From a virus (taxonomy: Duplodnaviria; Caudoviricetes): DNA of 59,357 bases. The stretch is from the IMG/VR virus record IMGVR_UViG_3300032261_000006, positions 1 through 59,357 of that record. One strand, given 5' to 3'. Both the position numbers and the translations under genes were made by a program. Below, one piece after another: positions 1-59,357 of this stretch. The notes beneath the pieces are model-generated. The model made no database searches and was not told where the DNA came from. It worked only from the letters and a program-made list of their open reading frames with translations. Position 1 is the stretch's first letter. Every line of letters begins with the position of its first letter.

Positions 1-788
1 TTGGCCTTCCGGATCATATAGCCGGTGCCGGTCAAAGTGCTGAACGACAAACACCAGAAATCCTGCCGGGTAACGCCGCGTTGTGTTTCCACCGGCACGG
101 TCTCGGTATCCGTGGCGCACGGGTCGTCGTCCGTGCCGTAAACTGCACTGGCCACGTCCGAAGCCGTCTCCAATTCCATATACATCGGGTCCGGAAATTC
201 GTCGACCGGCTGATCGTCGCCAAAGTCTAGGAAGGCTCGCAATCTTTTGAAATCATCCCGGCTGGTTTGAATGGCGCTGGTCTGGTGGAGGCCGAGAGCG
301 AAATGGATCATAGCAAAGGTCGGCACCCACACGCCGCACCAGTTTTGCTCACCCAAATAGCGACCATGCACGGCCTCCAGGTCATAATCACCGGCTAGAG
401 ATAACGCCGCAGGCCCCATCGGCACGATCAATTTCGGCTTCATCTTGTTGAGCAGACCCGGCAAATGGTAGGCCGCACATTGCTGTAGTAATTGCCGGTC
501 GCGCTTGGCGTTATAGACCGGCAAGTAACATTTCAAGCAATTGTCCATGCCGACGCCGCCACGCTCCAAACCGGCTAGCGGCAAGTAATGCTTATTCAGT
601 TCATCGGACGCGCCGCCCACGAAGCACCGGCCCTTGGAATTCTCCTCCTTACCAGGACCTTCACCGAGAAACAGCACGCCAGCGCCACCTGGAATGTCAG
701 GCGGAATCGGCGGACAACCTGAGACACGCGGGCAAGTTGGGCACGGCGTCATGCCATATCGCGCCGACCTCTGCTCTGCGTATGTCAT
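1..788 (-). CDS. N-terminal part of a family-4 uracil-DNA glycosylase / 3'-5' exonuclease fusion (continues at 59357, not in ORF track)
   Basis: Manual translation from ATG 788: CPTC, LFLGEGPGKEE..G.CFVG, DNCLKC, QQC and IHF match the UDG4 motifs and Fe-S cysteines. Then ExoI-like ATDTET. The frame is open to base 1 and joins in frame to the 58712..59341 ORF. Confidence 0.85.
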   Translation of the reverse strand, partial: MTYAEQRSARYGMTPCPTCPRVSGCPPIPPDIPGGAGVLFLGEGPGKEENSKGRCFVGGASDELNKHYLPLAGLERGGVGMDNCLKCYLPVYNAKRDRQLLQQCAAYHLPGLLNKMKPKLIVPMGPAALSLAGDYDLEAVHGRYLGEQNWCGVWVPTFAMIHFALGLHQTSAIQTSRDDFKRLRAFLDFGDDQPVDEFPDPMYMELETASDVASAVYGTDDDPCATDTETVPVETQRGVTRQDFWCLSFSTLTGTGYMIRKA

Positions 789-53831: not shown

Positions 53832-54007
53832 GATTTCTTCGCCACCTTCTCCCGTTGTCTGGTAGCTTCTCTTAGCAATTCTCGCGCTAATTGTGTCGCC
53901 TCCACAACGTTTCCCACCTTGGCATCATCCAACCACAATCGGGCAGCGATTTTAGCCACCGCTAAATCTTCCTCATTCCACGCGGGCGGGTCCCATCTTG
54001 GCATCAT
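53828..54007 (-). CDS. 59-aa hypothetical protein (MMPRWDPPAW...)
   Basis: GAGGAGG RBS; last gene of the replication operon. Confidence 0.55.
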   Translation of the reverse strand: MMPRWDPPAWNEEDLAVAKIAARLWLDDAKVGNVVEATQLARELLREATRQREKVAKKS

Positions 54008-54602
54008 TCCTCCTCAGGAAGCCTTCGTCAGTGATGGCTAGACTTTTGGCCCGGTCCAGGTACCGGTGCTCTGCGTATTTCGGAGACCAGCCCCACTCCG
54101 AGCCCTCATAGTGCGCTGAAATGACGGTAGCACGTGACAACGCTGCTGGACAGGTAAACTCTTTGAGCAGCGGCAAGTTATCCGGATGCGGCACCAGACC
54201 GGCATTGACTTCAGCTTTGACCATGCCCTTATCCCAATGGTCGAAGTCCGAAAGTTCAGCTATCGTCACCGGCTTCACGCTGTATTTGGCTAGAATGACC
54301 GCTGTGATGGCATCATCAATATCGCGGTATGGCTTCATTTCGGCCAATCGCTTGATCGGCGCTGTCTGGTCCAAGATGTAAGCTTCAGCAGCGTCATGCA
54401 GCAGGCCCAATTTTGCGAACCGGCTCGGCGTAACTAACGAGAGCCGTATGCAATGTTCAGCCACTGAATAGAACCGCCGCGTGTGACCGGCGTAGCGGCA
54501 AATGTTGGACAAAGCATGCGCAATGTCCGCGATGCAAATCTGCTCAGGTTGCGGATCCAATGGATCGAGCCGCTTGCCGGTAAAAGTCGGTACCCACGTC
54601 AT
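53973..54602 (-). CDS. HD-domain deoxynucleotide phosphohydrolase (YfbR/YfdR-like; DatZ-role candidate)
   Basis: DIAHALSNICRYAGH, YSVAEH, LLHDAAEAY..D...PIK. Confidence 0.85.
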   Translation of the reverse strand: MTWVPTFTGKRLDPLDPQPEQICIADIAHALSNICRYAGHTRRFYSVAEHCIRLSLVTPSRFAKLGLLHDAAEAYILDQTAPIKRLAEMKPYRDIDDAITAVILAKYSVKPVTIAELSDFDHWDKGMVKAEVNAGLVPHPDNLPLLKEFTCPAALSRATVISAHYEGSEWGWSPKYAEHRYLDRAKSLAITDEGFLRRNDAKMGPARVE

Positions 54603-55093
54603 TAGCCCTGGCCTCCTGTGCTACCAAATCCGTTTTCGCCGCGATCACCGGCTGGAAAGTCCTTGGCCGCGACCTCTTGCATGTCCGACGACATCAAATG
54701 ATGGAGAATGAGTTGAATGAGCCGTTCGCCTCTCTTTACTGTGACGCGTTCATCAGTCGGATTGTAAATTGAGGCCCACAATTCGCCGCGATAGCCGTTG
54801 TCGATGATGGCAGTGTTGACTATCAAATTCCGCTTGAAGAATGTGCTGGATCGACCGACGATAGAAGCCCAAGCCCCGTCCGGCAAGGCCACGCGTAAAT
54901 TAGTCGGCACGTTGGCCCAGCATTTCGGGTCGATAGAGACTTGCCTGCTTGCGGACAGATCAAATCCGGCATCGCCTGGATAGTGCCGAATCGGCGTAAA
55001 GTACGGCAATTCCTGGTTTACCGGCGCAAAGAGGATCGTCGGTCTAATCGCTTTCGGGTTCTGGGTCATACTTACTTTCGGGTTCTGGGTCAT
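54602..55093 (-). CDS. dut: trimeric dUTPase-family protein
   Basis: Five motifs: AGFDL, GRSS, IIDNGYRGE, RLIQL, RGENGFGSTG. Confidence 0.9.
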   Translation of the reverse strand: MTQNPKVSMTQNPKAIRPTILFAPVNQELPYFTPIRHYPGDAGFDLSASRQVSIDPKCWANVPTNLRVALPDGAWASIVGRSSTFFKRNLIVNTAIIDNGYRGELWASIYNPTDERVTVKRGERLIQLILHHLMSSDMQEVAAKDFPAGDRGENGFGSTGGQG

Positions 55094-56168
55094 ACTTTAA
55101 TTCCTGTGAGACTAAATTGATGTAATTACTGACGATGAGATCATCCTGGTGCGGCCCGGTGAAGATCATAGTGACTGGTGCGCCAGCCATCACTTCCATT
55201 CGCGCAATATGTTCAACGGTTTTATCGTCTAATTGGTTGTGCTGGCGCACGCTACGGTTAGCGTAACTGATGTAATCGGCACCATGCAGAACTAAGTTTG
55301 TGGGCCGGTTCACCCGGATAGATCGCTTGAACAATTCCCAATCCCATTCACCGACGCGCCGTATCTTTCTGGTGACCGAGGTCAATTCGATCAACGGCAT
55401 GTTAGCAGGGAATCCGGCCCGTTCATGCACGGTTTGCCAATCGATTTCCTTATACATCGGACCGGAATTGCCACCGACGCGGATCGGGTAGGACCGGTAA
55501 ACTGCGTAAATTCGGTCGCATGTTCTCGGCGACAGACCGCATTCGGCCAGGAAAGTGGAGGCTGCAGTGTCCTTGGACGTGCACCACGGATAGTGCGGCA
55601 CGCAGAATAGCGAGAGGCCCAGGCCCTGCGTACCTTCAACGATAATGCGTTTGCCACTGTCGTGTATTTCGTTCAACAACTCCACTGTGTCCGTAATGAA
55701 CGATACCAGATCCGGCACGTCGCGAGCCAAAGTTGCATCACGCATGGCCCGCTTCGAAGCCGTCCACCCGGTGCCGGTCTGCGTGGAGCCGATGCGATCG
55801 CCCAAATTCACGCTGCGCTCCTTCGCTGCTCCGATATCGACGACGGCAGCCATCGGGTCGATCTTCAAAGAAGGTCGAATGTTGATGTCGAGACTGTCCA
55901 ACTGATAAATTTCCTTCCACAGCAATTCAGGATCAACAATAGAGCCAGCGGCGATGACGTAATATAGCCGAGGGTTCCGGCTTGCCACGGCTGATGGGAT
56001 TTGACGCATCACCATGGACTGTTGGCCGAAATACACGGTGTGTCCGGCATTTGGCCCTCCACATCGCACTGCTGCGCCAACGCTTGGATCGTCGCGGCAA
56101 AGTTGGACCACACATTTTCCTTTACCGCTGCTTCCATAAAAACCGTCCACTACGACCGTGACCGGCAT
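55044..56168 (-). CDS. purZ: PurZ-like N6-succinyl-2-amino-dAMP synthetase (PurA paralog)
   Basis: DGFYGSSGKGK (Ser in place of PurA Asp13), PNAGHT, IGST.TG, EGTQG, YPWCTS, RSYPIRVGGNSGP, TSVTRKIRRVG, HGADY. Confidence 0.85.
   Translation of the reverse strand: MPVTVVVDGFYGSSGKGKCVVQLCRDDPSVGAAVRCGGPNAGHTVYFGQQSMVMRQIPSAVASRNPRLYYVIAAGSIVDPELLWKEIYQLDSLDINIRPSLKIDPMAAVVDIGAAKERSVNLGDRIGSTQTGTGWTASKRAMRDATLARDVPDLVSFITDTVELLNEIHDSGKRIIVEGTQGLGLSLFCVPHYPWCTSKDTAASTFLAECGLSPRTCDRIYAVYRSYPIRVGGNSGPMYKEIDWQTVHERAGFPANMPLIELTSVTRKIRRVGEWDWELFKRSIRVNRPTNLVLHGADYISYANRSVRQHNQLDDKTVEHIARMEVMAGAPVTMIFTGPHQDDLIVSNYINLVSQELKYDPEPESKYDPEPESD
55051..55097. repeat. 24-bp tandem duplication in the purZ/dut overlap
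   Basis: CTTTCGGGTTCTGGGTCATACTT(A) x2. Confidence 0.9.
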
Positions 56169-56374
56169 TGATGTTTAAACCTCCCTGCTGTCAATAGCTT
56201 GGTGAATCCTTCCACGATGATTTCAGCAAGCTGTGATGCGTTTGCATTGATTCCCGGAATCATCACCAGCACGATCGCTTTCTCTTCCTTCACAATTTCA
56301 ATAGTTGTGTATCCGTCCTGATGCCAGGACCTGGGAATCCGCTCTAGCGTGTTGATATAAAATGATGGCATCAA
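56150..56374 (-). CDS. hypothetical protein
   Basis: Overlaps both neighbours; directly upstream of purZ. Confidence 0.5.
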   Translation of the reverse strand: MMPSFYINTLERIPRSWHQDGYTTIEIVKEEKAIVLVMIPGINANASQLAEIIVEGFTKLLTAGRFKHQCRSRS

Positions 56375-56811
56375 CTTTCCTTTTTGTCCGGGTTCGTCAT
56401 TTCGATGGTGGTGTAGGACGTGGACCAGGACGTCTCCTGCAGGATTTCATTCACATCTTCCGCTGACACGCCATGCGTCAGCATCGATTTTGTCAGTTTA
56501 TCGATACCCACGCCAGAGGCCCGTCCGTCTTTCACTCGGAAAATGCGGCCATTGTAAACAAAGGCCCGACCGAATGGAATCAGAGACGATGCCAATTCAT
56601 CGATGATGCCACCGCCTTCATGTTTGCCGTGATTCTTCTTTCCTTTTAATGCAGTTTCGGCTTCATCAATCGCTTCCTTAAAGGCTCGGCACCGGTCGAG
56701 CAGATCCATGATTCGCGTCTGCTCTCTGCTGTTTTTGATGACCGCGAGATTGAGCACGCCCTCCGGTGCCGGTTCCGGTACCCGCTGCTGCTTTTTCGTC
56801 TTTGTCGCCAT
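56371..56811 (-). CDS. hypothetical protein
   Basis: AGGAGG RBS. Confidence 0.65.
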   Translation of the reverse strand: MATKTKKQQRVPEPAPEGVLNLAVIKNSREQTRIMDLLDRCRAFKEAIDEAETALKGKKNHGKHEGGGIIDELASSLIPFGRAFVYNGRIFRVKDGRASGVGIDKLTKSMLTHGVSAEDVNEILQETSWSTSYTTIEMTNPDKKES

Positions 56812-56822
56812 AGATCCTCCTA

Positions 56823-57068
56823 TTACAGCATACCAGATTGTTGTCTCGTGGTCAATACCACAGTTTTAGTCTTTGTGGCAGCATATTCCTGGCGCTTGGC
56901 TTCTAACTCTTCCGGCGTTGGTTGCTTCCATTTAGTGCTGCTCAAATTGACATAATCGCGAAACCATGCCAGCACGCTGAGTGTGGCTTCGTGAATCTCC
57001 TCATCATGTGCACCGTAGCAGATTGAGCACTCCTCTTCAGGCGGTTTCGATTTCCTGGATTTTTCCAT
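56823..57068 (-). CDS. hypothetical CxxC-H protein
   Basis: CSICYGAHDEEIHEAT; start uncertain. Confidence 0.5.
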   Translation of the reverse strand: MEKSRKSKPPEEECSICYGAHDEEIHEATLSVLAWFRDYVNLSSTKWKQPTPEELEAKRQEYAATKTKTVVLTTRQQSGML

Positions 57069-57381
57069 GGGTGAAACTCTGCTTAAGCGCCACCAAATCC
57101 GCCACAGCTTGGGCCAGTTCTGATAGTCGAACGTTCTGCCTGTACTGGGGTTCTTTATGAGTAGATTCATACCACAATTCGGCTAATTTGATCACCTTGC
57201 ATTCAACTACACGTAAATCGAAATAGCGGGTGGACTGATGATCGGCCTTCGATTCCGCCCGCAGTTTCTTGTATTCCGGCGAATGAATCGTGCAGTAATT
57301 GTGGCCCTGATATTCGCAGGTGGCATTACGTCTGCACGCGACGCCGTAGGTGGTGGTTGCTGAGCATGATTTGTTCATCAT
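57037..57381 (-). CDS. Zn-finger hypothetical protein
   Basis: CSATT..G..CRRNA......YCTIH; ATGA overlap with the pol stop. Confidence 0.6.
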   Translation of the reverse strand: MMNKSCSATTTYGVACRRNATCEYQGHNYCTIHSPEYKKLRAESKADHQSTRYFDLRVVECKVIKLAELWYESTHKEPQYRQNVRLSELAQAVADLVALKQSFTHGKIQEIETA

Positions 57382-58715
57382 TTCTCTAACTTCCCCCATC
57401 GATCGCCATAAGCGTAGCTCGACTTGATTGGAGTTGCGAATCTAACGCAGTTGGCGACGATCTCTTGACATTGAACCAGACTTTCCTCGATGCTGCGCTC
57501 GTAGCCTTCGACGAGCAATTCGTCGTGAATTTGCAGCAACGGCATAATGGGCAGGCCGCTTACGATGGTATCCCAAATTTCGGCCATGGCCAATTTCATT
57601 ACGGTCTGCGCCGTCGATTGAATTCGGTGTGAATAGGCATACCGGAGACCGGCTTCAACGATGCGCTTATGAACGGATTTCACCTCCGGAATCCAGCGAA
57701 TGCGGCCCGCATAATCCCAAGTATAGCCGTACTGACGAGCCCGACTGTACTGCTCATTCATTGCCGGTCGGATCTCTGAATAGACGCCAAACCAGGAGTT
57801 GATGGCTTCAGCACACTTTATCAGCGGCCATGAATCGACGTAGGCTTGCCGGTCGGCCTCCGTCCAGGATTTGTCGGAAGCTACTAGAATTTGGTCGCGC
57901 AAGCCCTCTTCAGTGATGCCGAAGAGGATACCGAAACCGATACGCTTGGCCGGATACCGGTGCTTCATCTTGTCTAATTTGTCCACCGGTAAATGGAAAA
58001 TGCGGCTGGCCGTCTCCGCATGAATGTCGCCATCCCGCAGGAACGTGTCAATCATCGGAAAGCAATCGGCGTCATCCGCAGCCGTGCGCATTTCGATCTG
58101 CGACAAATCGATAGTGCCCAGCTTCCGGCCCGGTGGTGCGATATAGCCGTCTCGAATTCGTTTACCGAGATCGGTACGGACCGGTTGCGCCATCAAATTC
58201 GGCTCTGATGATGAAATGCGTCCCGGCACCTGTCGCGTGACTCGCAGTGTGGTACGTACGCGGCCATCATCTTGGCTAGCGATGACCGGCAATACATCGG
58301 TATAAGACGTGCGCAACTTGTGTACTTCAGTGAATTCCTGTATCTTTGGGATGCACAGGTGCTGATGTTTGATCGATTCCAGCGCTTCGTCGTCCACTAT
58401 GTACCGTCTTTTGGACGCAACTTTCTTGATGTGCATCGGCTTGAGTTTAAGTCGATCGAACAGCAGAGCCGCGATCTGGTCCGGTGAGCCTAGATTGATC
58501 CGATAATTGGTAAGCCTGCGCACATCCTCGGTCAGCCGCTCTTCCTCTTCCTTCAGGTATCGACTGAATTTGTGAAAATGGTCCTTATCAATGAGGATGC
58601 CATTAGCTTGCATCGCCGCCACCATCGGCATGACGCCCAGGTCCAGCCGCCGAATGTTGGTGGTCGAGGGTTGATCCAGGAGCCGTACACCGTTATAGCA
58701 GGTTTGTTTAATCAT
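57378..58715 (-). CDS. polA: family A DNA polymerase, polymerase domain only
   Basis: NLGSPDQI..LLF, GRISSSEPNL, motif A DLSQIEMR, motif B RYPAKRIGFGILFG, motif C QIHDEL. The ATG at 58715 overlaps the exonuclease stop (ATGA). Confidence 0.92.
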   Translation of the reverse strand: MIKQTCYNGVRLLDQPSTTNIRRLDLGVMPMVAAMQANGILIDKDHFHKFSRYLKEEEERLTEDVRRLTNYRINLGSPDQIAALLFDRLKLKPMHIKKVASKRRYIVDDEALESIKHQHLCIPKIQEFTEVHKLRTSYTDVLPVIASQDDGRVRTTLRVTRQVPGRISSSEPNLMAQPVRTDLGKRIRDGYIAPPGRKLGTIDLSQIEMRTAADDADCFPMIDTFLRDGDIHAETASRIFHLPVDKLDKMKHRYPAKRIGFGILFGITEEGLRDQILVASDKSWTEADRQAYVDSWPLIKCAEAINSWFGVYSEIRPAMNEQYSRARQYGYTWDYAGRIRWIPEVKSVHKRIVEAGLRYAYSHRIQSTAQTVMKLAMAEIWDTIVSGLPIMPLLQIHDELLVEGYERSIEESLVQCQEIVANCVRFATPIKSSYAYGDRWGKLEK

Positions 58716-59357
58716 GCGAGTACAAACTTCCCCGGCCTCATCTGCCGGAATCGCACGGCCAGCCGCCGCAGCATCCACCAGACTCGCAAAGTGGCGTCAG
58801 AGTCACGGCAGGAATAATGCGTCACACGCCGCTTATCCCGCTCCCAGGCTAGTTCAATGCTGGGTACCGGCATCGGCCCAAACATGCTGATCGCGGGCAA
58901 TTTCTCCTCGTCCGACCAGTTGCGCCAGCGGTCGAGTAGGTCCGTTTCTGGGTCCTTTGTGGCGTCTCCGAGCCCTCTCCTTAGTTTCTGAGTGAGGCTC
59001 TGAGGCCGATATAGCCGGTAGCTTCCGTCATCGTTCAGGACAAGGTATTCCTCTGGTTTCGGCCATTCCCATTGGGCCAGCGTCTCGAAATATTCGATGG
59101 CCTTCTGACGGGCAAATGGTCGGACCAGATCCTCGAATTCCTCCATCTTCATTCCGCACAGCCGCCAAGCCAGAACCTTGAGCGATTGCGGCTGGTTGCC
59201 CAGATGATAGGCCCGGACCATGGTGTCGTCAAATCGGCGTAGAAATAGGCCGATCTGCTCATAGACCGGCCCGTCAAACAGGTAATTGTGCACCAGCCAT
59301 AGACCGCGCCTGCGTCTGGCCCATTTCTTATATTCTTCCAAGGCCCGTTCGTTGGCC
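58712..59357 (-). CDS. C-terminal part of the UDG / 3'-5' exonuclease fusion
   Basis: ExoII HNYLFD, DTMV.AY, SLK.LA, ExoIII YSCRDS; frame is open to the window end and joins 1..788. Confidence 0.85.
   Translation of the reverse strand, partial: ANERALEEYKKWARRRRGLWLVHNYLFDGPVYEQIGLFLRRFDDTMVRAYHLGNQPQSLKVLAWRLCGMKMEEFEDLVRPFARQKAIEYFETLAQWEWPKPEEYLVLNDDGSYRLYRPQSLTQKLRRGLGDATKDPETDLLDRWRNWSDEEKLPAISMFGPMPVPSIELAWERDKRRVTHYSCRDSDATLRVWWMLRRLAVRFRQMRPGKFVLA

Follow-up and report, generated by a model that had tools for sequence, protein, structure and literature searches.

Two lineages of DNA polymerases that favour 2-aminoadenine (Z) over adenine, the DpoZ enzymes of PurZ phages, are recognised in the relevant sections of work published up to February 2026, which leave the cause of their Z preference open (PMC12884076, PMC10201439); Poubanne et al. 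2026 (PMC12884076) describe two DpoZ groups among NCBI viruses. According to the parts of Czernecki et al. 2021 that deal with specificity (PMC8599892), Phe459 of the phiVC8 enzyme, at position B4 of motif B, is the sole characteristic substitution common to both DpoZ clades, and Czernecki et al. 2023 (PMC10201439) repeat the point and ask, in the sections on DpoZ, whether further PolA subfamilies have evolved Z specificity. Here a candidate from such another subfamily is described in the tailed-phage record IMGVR_UViG_3300032261_000006, positions 1 to 59,357 of which constitute the window, that is, the whole stretch of DNA analysed. Its gene at 57378..58715 (-) encodes a family A polymerase of 445 aa with Phe at B4, and a purZ gene lies nearby. 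As judged by sequence comparison, this polymerase is credibly a third, independent PurZ-linked lineage, for which Z-over-A selectivity is only a candidate property.

The independence from known DpoZ, proposed in an earlier note on this DNA, was borne out when the window polymerase was aligned with the phiVC8 and Wayne types. BLASTP gave no significant match to phiVC8 DpoZ and 28% identity over 237 aa to Wayne DpoZ, and both references fall outside the 73-row family of the window polymerase (support 97) in an IQ-TREE phylogeny of 78 polymerase domains. Membership in the phiVC8-like or Wayne-like clade is ruled out by these BLASTP results together with the tree position. The phiVC8-like DpoZ (PolA cluster #18 or DpoZ-2; PDB 7PBK) is likewise a family A enzyme of a PurZ phage, with a datZ-like HD gene nearby as in the window, and the Phe that the earlier note placed at the Tyr766 position of this type is indeed there (F459) and is common to both DpoZ clades. 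However, the phiVC8-like clade is marked by Leu at B3, Gly548 and three insertions, whereas the window polymerase has Phe at B3, and the helix-O insertion of phiVC8 DpoZ seen in the structural part of PMC8599892 is not evident in the alignment of the window and KlenTaq sequences. PDB 7PBK is also absent from the best 60 of the 72 PDB sequence matches of the window polymerase, and phiVC8 DpoZ is a single exonuclease-polymerase chain without uracil-DNA glycosylase (UDG), in contrast to the two genes with UDG in the window. The Wayne-like DpoZ (cluster #19 or DpoZ-1) resembles the window enzyme in its Phe at B4 and in its context of a PurZ0-like synthetase and a DutZ-like dUTPase, but it is one polypeptide without UDG and its clade is related to D29-like PolAs.

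Other described polymerases share single features with the window enzyme. The UDG-PolAs (the N4-like cluster #17; SPO1, SP-15 and YerA41-like) have the same order of family-4 UDG, 3'-5' exonuclease and polymerase, but the window enzyme is distant from them in sequence, is encoded by two genes and has its link with purZ instead of thymidine hypermodification. The split T7-like PolA (S-SBP1-like, cluster #5) is encoded, like the window enzyme, by neighbouring exonuclease and polymerase genes with overlapping stop and start codons, although it belongs to a different subfamily and the exonuclease gene of the window additionally carries UDG. The family is all but absent from INPHARED: the best identities there were 32-37%, with bacterial Pol I or with fragments lacking annotation, and a single record spans 80% or more of a full-length family member (29% identity); no N4-like phage was among the INPHARED matches listed, the N4 polymerase itself not having been compared directly. 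By these comparisons the family is an uncultured, metagenome-only UDG-PolA group outside both DpoZ clades. In the sections of the literature on DpoZ and PurZ polymerases that bear on such enzymes, no description was found of a UDG-fused or split PurZ-linked PolA, or of Asn or Thr at B4.

The polymerase gene lies within the minus-strand open reading frame (ORF) 57378-58778 and starts with the ATG at 58715. Its product comprises the thumb, palm and fingers of a family A polymerase and no exonuclease domain, and PF00476 (DNA_pol_A) matches it with E 9.7e-76 over profile positions 2-380 of 381. Close homologues measure 430-475 aa and have PF00476 as their sole domain. The closest solved structures, searched with phmmer (HMMER) against PDB sequences, are KlenTaq (E 9e-56), Klenow (4e-47) and Bst Pol I (5e-44), with which all catalytic residues are shared. 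A structure model, advised by the earlier note as a check, gave a confident fold that superposes on KlenTaq: the AlphaFold2 model, computed with 25 relatives, has a predicted local distance difference test score of 88.6 and a predicted template-modelling score of 0.84, and its top Foldseek match is KlenTaq (TMq 0.84-0.87, 30% identity). An entry for a Bst Y714S mismatch is also present among the PDB structural matches of the model.

Motifs were called from the HMMER alignment to KlenTaq and from a 120-protein family alignment; the numbers used for the window polymerase (Tyr766, Asn845, Gln849, Arg668, Glu710, Asp854) are those we take to apply in E. coli Pol I. All substitutions listed in the earlier note reappear in both alignments. 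Motif B, in helix O (RYPAKRIGFGILFGIT, 57912..57959 (-)), retains Arg754, Lys758 and Phe762 and has Phe265, encoded by the TTC codon at 57921..57923 (-), at position B4 (E. coli Tyr766, Taq Tyr671). The segment preceding motif A (TRQVPGRISSSEPNLMAQPVR, 58176..58238 (-)) has Pro for the Thr of TGR, with TRQVPGR occupying the usual TGR position, and PNLMAQP for PNLQNIP, with Arg668 retained. In motif 6 (57594..57647 (-), LRYAYSHRIQSTAQTVMK), the part LRYAYSHRIQSTAQT has Ser at Asn845, an unchanged Gln849 and Thr at Asp854. Motifs A (DLSQIEMR) and C (QIHDE) are intact, as had been stated, and all catalytic residues are present. Compared with bacterial Pol I (about 30% identity) the window enzyme thus differs by Phe at B4, by altered TGR, PNLQNIP and motif 6, and by the lack of an attached exonuclease domain. 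At the insertion site the helix-O Tyr stacks against the template, and it bonds the steric-gate Glu (Glu710); Ser or Ala in its place yields mutator enzymes.

The relation between B4 and purZ was followed in 146 loci from IMG/VR and JGI metagenomes, which were collected with search patterns not including B4 and contain 110 unique polymerases. The presence of purZ was scored by a PF00709 search of whole viral records, 11 metagenome loci being left out, and a record was counted as purZ-less only if at least 70% complete by the CheckV estimate, the absence of purZ on fragments being uninformative. B4 is Tyr, Asn, Thr or Phe in this family. In the strict set of 47 rows, purZ accompanies 35 non-Tyr rows and one Tyr row (L011), while it is lacking in 11 Tyr rows and in no non-Tyr row; among records at least 90% complete it is found in 10/10 with Asn, 1/1 with Thr and 0/2 with Tyr. 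The sister clade of the window's clade, which is split as well and bears Tyr, has purZ in 0/31 records (0/8 complete ones), and its records are all canonical (TGR, PNLQNIP, LYG, Asn845). The earlier note had named the occurrence of the same residues in purZ-less relatives as grounds for abandoning its proposal; for B4 no such case appears among the 11 + 13 purZ-less records at least 70% complete, although for the other residues it does.

Phylogeny indicates that B4 changed repeatedly. The window's clade, which has 17 rows and support 96 in the IQ-TREE phylogeny, has as its sister the split clade with Tyr and without purZ (support 99), and the Thr clade and the Asn clades are placed elsewhere, each beside Tyr lineages. 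B4 changes at least seven times on this tree. Across 40 scorable rows, six independent contrasts lie on supported branches, and purZ is concordant in five, opposite in none and without difference in one. Forcing all 36 non-Tyr rows into one clade is rejected by the approximately unbiased (AU) test (delta lnL 722, p 1.1e-5), for a group that was defined by the trait after a tree had been seen. HMMER alignments place the Asn of L015 and the Thr of L024 opposite the Tyr of Klenow and Taq. The large Asn-type purZ clades include L015, L025, L027, L028, L030, L033, L039, L044, L047, L050 and others, and Thr-type ones L024, L056, L058, L060, L072, L073, L133 and others; a small polar residue replacing the helix-O aromatic is unusual for a replicative PolA.

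The other substitutions behave differently. The window's clade is here P0001-P0029, and P0030-P0120 (n=91) are more distant homologues. Within the clade the Thr of TGR is replaced in most members (S15, G8, T4, P1, N1), Asn845 is S15, N12, A1, Gln849 is Q17, S11 and Glu710 is E25, Q4. The 91 distant homologues keep the canonical Thr of TGR in 72, Gln677 in 55, Asn678 in 59, Tyr766 in 75, Asn845 in 85 and Gln849 in 87, and at position 854 they have Asp in 9 and Gly, the family norm, in 75. The changes that the earlier note placed at normally invariant residues are thus real, but by these counts the term is too strong for several of the positions. Among purZ-less relatives, PNLMAQP recurs in L065, a record that is 100% complete, the complete records L165 and L157 have Ser or Asn where TGR has Thr, and Ser845 is seen in L010, L176 and L177. 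PNLMAQP, xGR, Asn845Ser and the loss of Asp854 were accordingly rejected as Z markers, being present in purZ-less relatives and variable within the clade. The same observations lend no support to the rationale of the earlier note, in which the region of Asn845, Gln849 and Arg668 reads the minor groove, where the extra 2-amino group of Z lies; Arg668 and, in the window, Gln849 are moreover unchanged. On these counts xGR, PNLMAQP, Asn845Ser and Asp854Thr characterise the clade or family and show no demonstrable tie to Z, and B4 is, in these alignments, the only one of the noted substitutions that tracks purZ in this family.

Some of this variation touches residues usually regarded as fixed. Gln849 of motif 6, usually treated as invariant, is Ser in 11/28 of the window's clade (P0002, P0004, P0010-P0012, P0014, P0019, P0021-P0023 and P0028) and in L157 (complete, purZ-less). 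Glu710, the steric-gate residue that partners the hydroxyl of the B4 Tyr, is Gln in P0006, P0016, P0017 and P0018 (4/29 clade members). Motif C reads YD rather than HD, called universally conserved in the literature, in L058 and L060 (Thr type), P0034, P0042 and P0064, and several members of the YD type also have Ser for the next Glu.

These data bear on the view that the whole set of substitutions, with B4 among them, was simply inherited in a divergent PolA clade and reflects lineage-specific drift unrelated to Z. The presence of xGR, PNLMAQP, Asn845Ser, Gln849Ser and the loss of Asp854 in purZ-less relatives would agree with it, as would a number of contrasts too small for significance at 0.05. 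Against this stand the repeated changes of B4 on the IQ-TREE tree, in step with purZ in the scorable contrasts, the rejection of a single origin by the AU test, the absence of non-Tyr residues from the purZ-less records at least 70% complete, and the change of the same residue in two unrelated DpoZ clades. Such drift is regarded as improbable.

The preferred reading is that the window polymerase is the replicase subunit of a predicted ZTGC phage and, as a third lineage, a functional analogue of DpoZ; the comparisons point this way, and we consider it evenly poised between right and wrong. The lineage, a UDG-PolA whose UDG-exonuclease and polymerase are encoded separately and coupled by an ATGA overlap, would have entered service in a PurZ phage on a path separate from that of the phiVC8-like and Wayne-like clades, and its two products would assemble. 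The change from Tyr to Phe at B4 would be functionally tied to the replication of Z:T pairs: loss of the Tyr hydroxyl, or of the whole ring where sister clades have Asn or Thr, might weaken the gate formed by Tyr, Glu710 and the template, and further extension would then lean more on a nascent pair with three hydrogen bonds. Some preference for dZTP over dATP would reside in the polymerase domain, and the removal of dATP and provision of dGMP would fall to the DutZ-like and HD enzymes. In favour of the reading, the triple exonuclease mutant of phiVC8 DpoZ, which is exonuclease-dead, retains its A/Z ratio according to the relevant part of PMC8599892.

The retention of the new residue is of importance for this reading. 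It is kept within each clade, Phe occurring in 27/29 members of the window's clade (the other two have Tyr) and Asn and Thr being uniform in theirs. Such near-fixation by clade, together with the same change in two proven Z-selective clades, favours a function. Within the window's clade, the Tyr lineage formed by P0030 and L165 is also purZ-less (L165 being 100% complete), and six close PolA relatives match PurZ homologues in exact size of the longest contig and in source (20170, 4365, 57277, 55327, 23387 and 12254). A bolder version, tentative and rather doubtful, is that B4 constitutes a recurrent Z switch, lost at least five times independently in purZ lineages, which sets the Z:T preference in place of the exonuclease or the clade-specific insertions; the losses within the UDG-PolA family (Phe, Asn, Thr) come on top of the two known DpoZ clades. 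If this were true, reversion to Tyr would abolish Z preference, and such a preference would arise in a purZ-less sister enzyme once its B4 was changed.

A number of points weigh against a role of B4 in Z selection and against the preferred reading. That Z is present in the DNA of the window phage is predicted from purZ alone, and within the window's own clade the window is the only member for which direct linkage to purZ is seen. One member with Tyr, P0023 (the 12254 match), probably has purZ too, as judged only from shared contig size and source. L011 (IMGVR_UViG_3300029288_000534) has Tyr at B4 (GFGILYQIS), and its purZ is situated 3.2 kb upstream; surrounded by Asn-type purZ lineages, it could represent a reversion. 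Non-Tyr residues without visible purZ are found in L009, L018, L019, L021, L034, L175 and L190, all of them fragments at most 54% complete. One of the two search patterns for the sister clade contained LYG, which biased that set towards Tyr. The sign test on the contrasts gives p 0.0625, the minimum possible with five contrasts; the raw table of 40 rows (23/0/1/16) gives a Fisher p of 2.7e-10, a value that ignores shared ancestry; and a 131-row FastTree phylogeny has only three supported contrasts, for which the sign test is uninformative. The authors of PMC8599892, in the part of their paper on Phe459, consider it unlikely to explain specificity and note that a Tyr-to-Phe mutant of Taq works on ATGC DNA, and that part reports no mutant of the shared Phe459. 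The passages of PMC10201439 on cyanophage S-2L describe full Z substitution without a selective polymerase. Finally, in a reverse sample of the best 80 of 271 IMG/VR PurZ loci, all 80 with Ser at the Asp13 position, a PolA lies at most 10 kb from PurZ in 33/80, and its B4 is Tyr in 24/33 and Phe in 9/33. With Tyr retained in 24/33 of these PurZ-adjacent PolAs, a phage can carry purZ without losing the B4 Tyr, and the relation holds in one direction only. The PolAs of the reverse sample are mostly 28-51% identical to Wayne DpoZ, and the 24 that keep Tyr (L215-L264, e.g. L227, L229, L239) mostly 28-34%, sharing the gene order of Wayne; surveys of cultured phages, in their sections on DpoZ, describe only Phe-bearing DpoZ beside PurZ.

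The one-sided association favours the main rival, according to which the replicase is non-selective and adenine is excluded by pool control through PurZ, the DutZ-like protein and the HD protein. The loss of Tyr would then reflect relaxed constraint, permitted rather than adaptive as all pairs would have three hydrogen bonds. S-2L (PurZ, DatZ, MazZ) is a PurZ phage with dATP-clearing enzymes, like the window phage as predicted from its genes, although its polymerase is a non-selective PrimPol of a different family that has no B4 position. This precedent (PMC10201439), the doubts about Phe459 raised by its describers (PMC8599892), the dATP-clearing enzymes predicted in the window and the different replacing residues of the clades (Phe, Asn, Thr) would all suit relaxed constraint, as far as the relevant sections of the two papers go. 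On the other hand, the clades retain their residue over 45-67% sequence divergence, which resembles purifying selection rather than drift, and both biochemically Z-selective DpoZ clades carry Phe in the accounts given in PMC8599892 and PMC10201439. Relaxed constraint is a serious possibility, though on present evidence an unlikely one.

The preferred reading, that of a DpoZ analogue, would give these enzymes a wider interest. The window adds a third, unrelated PurZ-linked lineage with the same rare change from Tyr to Phe and may serve as a natural test case, and the family offers closely related natural pairs, with Tyr and no purZ on one side and Phe, Asn or Thr with purZ on the other. If selective, such enzymes would be candidates for the synthesis of Z-DNA in vitro. 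Yang et al. 2025 (bioRxiv 10.1101/2025.10.22.683976) report, in the relevant sections, "novel DpoZ homologs" from metagenomes enriched for dZ, with two of these homologs increasing the incorporation of Z in vivo, and an unexplained association of UDG domains (PF03167) with dZ contigs. The fact that UDG is part of the polymerase here may explain that association, and the validated phiDpoZ1 and phiDpoZ2 may belong to the UDG-PolA family of the window.

The prediction of Z rests on purZ, which lies 1.2 kb downstream of the polymerase gene. PurZ, the DutZ-like protein and the HD protein are encoded on the same strand, spanning 1-3 kb downstream. The PurZ-type (2-amino)adenylosuccinate synthetase (55044..56168 (-); PF00709 E 6e-43, phrog_1211) shares 39% identity with Wayne PurZ0 and 33% with phiVC8 PurZ, and its GFYGSSGKGK motif has Ser at the position of PurA Asp13 and an aromatic residue at that of Phe12. 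Ser in place of the catalytic Asp of PurA is the PurZ criterion in the pertinent passages of 10.1101/2025.10.22.683976 and PMC12884076, and Ser or Gly stands at this position in all of the best 120 homologues of the window PurZ that were scored. The dUTPase-fold protein (54602..55093 (-); PF00692) is DutZ-like and shares 40% identity (E 2e-34) with the Dut half of Wayne gp53, an enzyme that hydrolyses dATP, dGTP and dUTP according to the section on it in PMC12884076. The HD phosphohydrolase (53973..54602 (-); phrog_318 E 1.4e-51) is a DatZ-like candidate with a weak match to phiVC8 DatZ (28% over 117 aa, E 5e-5) and no Pfam match at E at most 0.01. Four small ORFs (74-146 aa) between the polymerase gene and purZ, at 56150-57399 (-), have no Pfam or PHROG match. 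The remaining window is a tailed-phage genome, with terminase, portal, tape-measure and tail genes and two helicases. As a separate observation, the window PurZ has cellular homologues: these (P0138, P0143 and others), among them Nitrospira tepida (a 4.7-Mb contig) and an Archaeoglobaceae metagenome-assembled genome, are about 45% identical to it, as close as many phage ones, and have Ser or Gly at the Asp13 position.

The polymerase gene of the window encodes only the polymerase half of the enzyme, the gene for UDG and 3'-5' exonuclease being situated upstream. In the record this gene is found in two pieces. The 3' part (58712..59357 (-); phrog_17) carries ExoII (HNYLFD) and ExoIII (YSCRD), and the 5' part (1..788 (-); PF03167 E 6.5e-13) carries a family-4-type UDG domain and ExoI (DTET). 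The gene reads in frame through the contig junction, from the left piece (788-1 (-)) into the right piece, which extends to the contig end, and its homologue L024 abuts across the junction (residues 29-230 correspond to the left piece and 233-435 to the right). The contig begins and ends with the same 6 nt (TTGGCC). Because of these identical ends and of the single UDG-exonuclease gene in frame across the junction, the record is most likely a closed circle, that is, a whole circularly assembled genome, although IMG/VR labels it as linear and 71% complete.

The enzyme would accordingly comprise about 477 aa of UDG and exonuclease, a polypeptide on which ExoI-III are all present, followed by the 445 aa of the polymerase. 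Among related loci with an exonuclease match, exonuclease and polymerase are in a single ORF in 81/89 and split in 8/89, which rules out that the whole family is split, and the fused relatives carry PF03167 + PF01612 + PF00476 (UDG, exonuclease, polymerase). As most relatives are single fused proteins, the UDG-exonuclease and polymerase products of the window presumably assemble. It might be argued that the break is a frameshift error or a sign of decay, and the odd residues those of a dying gene, since the raw ORF list shows a 67-nt overlap between two reading frames. However, the ATG of the polymerase gene overlaps the TGA of the UDG-exonuclease ORF in a clean ATGA junction, and the 28 closest homologues, from independent assemblies, are likewise polymerase-only proteins (358-507 aa). 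This rules out a frameshift artefact at the junction, and as the catalytic residues are all kept and the model is confident, decay is also hardly conceivable.

The predicted UDG domain, which in the window retains a GEGPG...E motif, raises the further alternative that the enzyme serves another DNA chemistry, handling uracil or modified thymine as in the UDG-PolAs of the SP-15 and YerA41-like type. The fusion of UDG to the exonuclease and the adjacent dUTPase-fold gene would be compatible with such a role, and UDG-PolAs are linked to T-modified genomes in the relevant sections of PMC10201439 and PMC13697223, the latter (Missoury et al. 2026) treating UDG-PolAs of T-modified phages, not Z. Yet UDG is present in Tyr (L032) and non-Tyr (L024, L061, window) members alike and therefore cannot explain the split at B4, which follows purZ, and no thymidine-modification genes were found among the scanned ORFs of the window, many of which matched nothing. 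Another chemistry is for these reasons considered very unlikely. An enlarged spacer between ExoII and ExoIII was likewise discarded as a Z feature, a spacer of about 150 aa occurring in Tyr and non-Tyr members alike.

Exonuclease and polymerase are typically split in the window's clade and in the sister clade that bears Tyr. In the sections of PMC10201439 on gene organisation, where UDG-PolAs are also described, such fission is reported only in T7-like phages, and the present family thus shows it in a second PolA subfamily. In the sister clade (L151, L152, L155, L159, L164) the UDG-exonuclease ORFs have 449-516 aa and are located 0.4-4 kb upstream of the polymerase gene, a gap that may hold other genes and that represents a more extreme fission than the T7-like case of adjacent genes.

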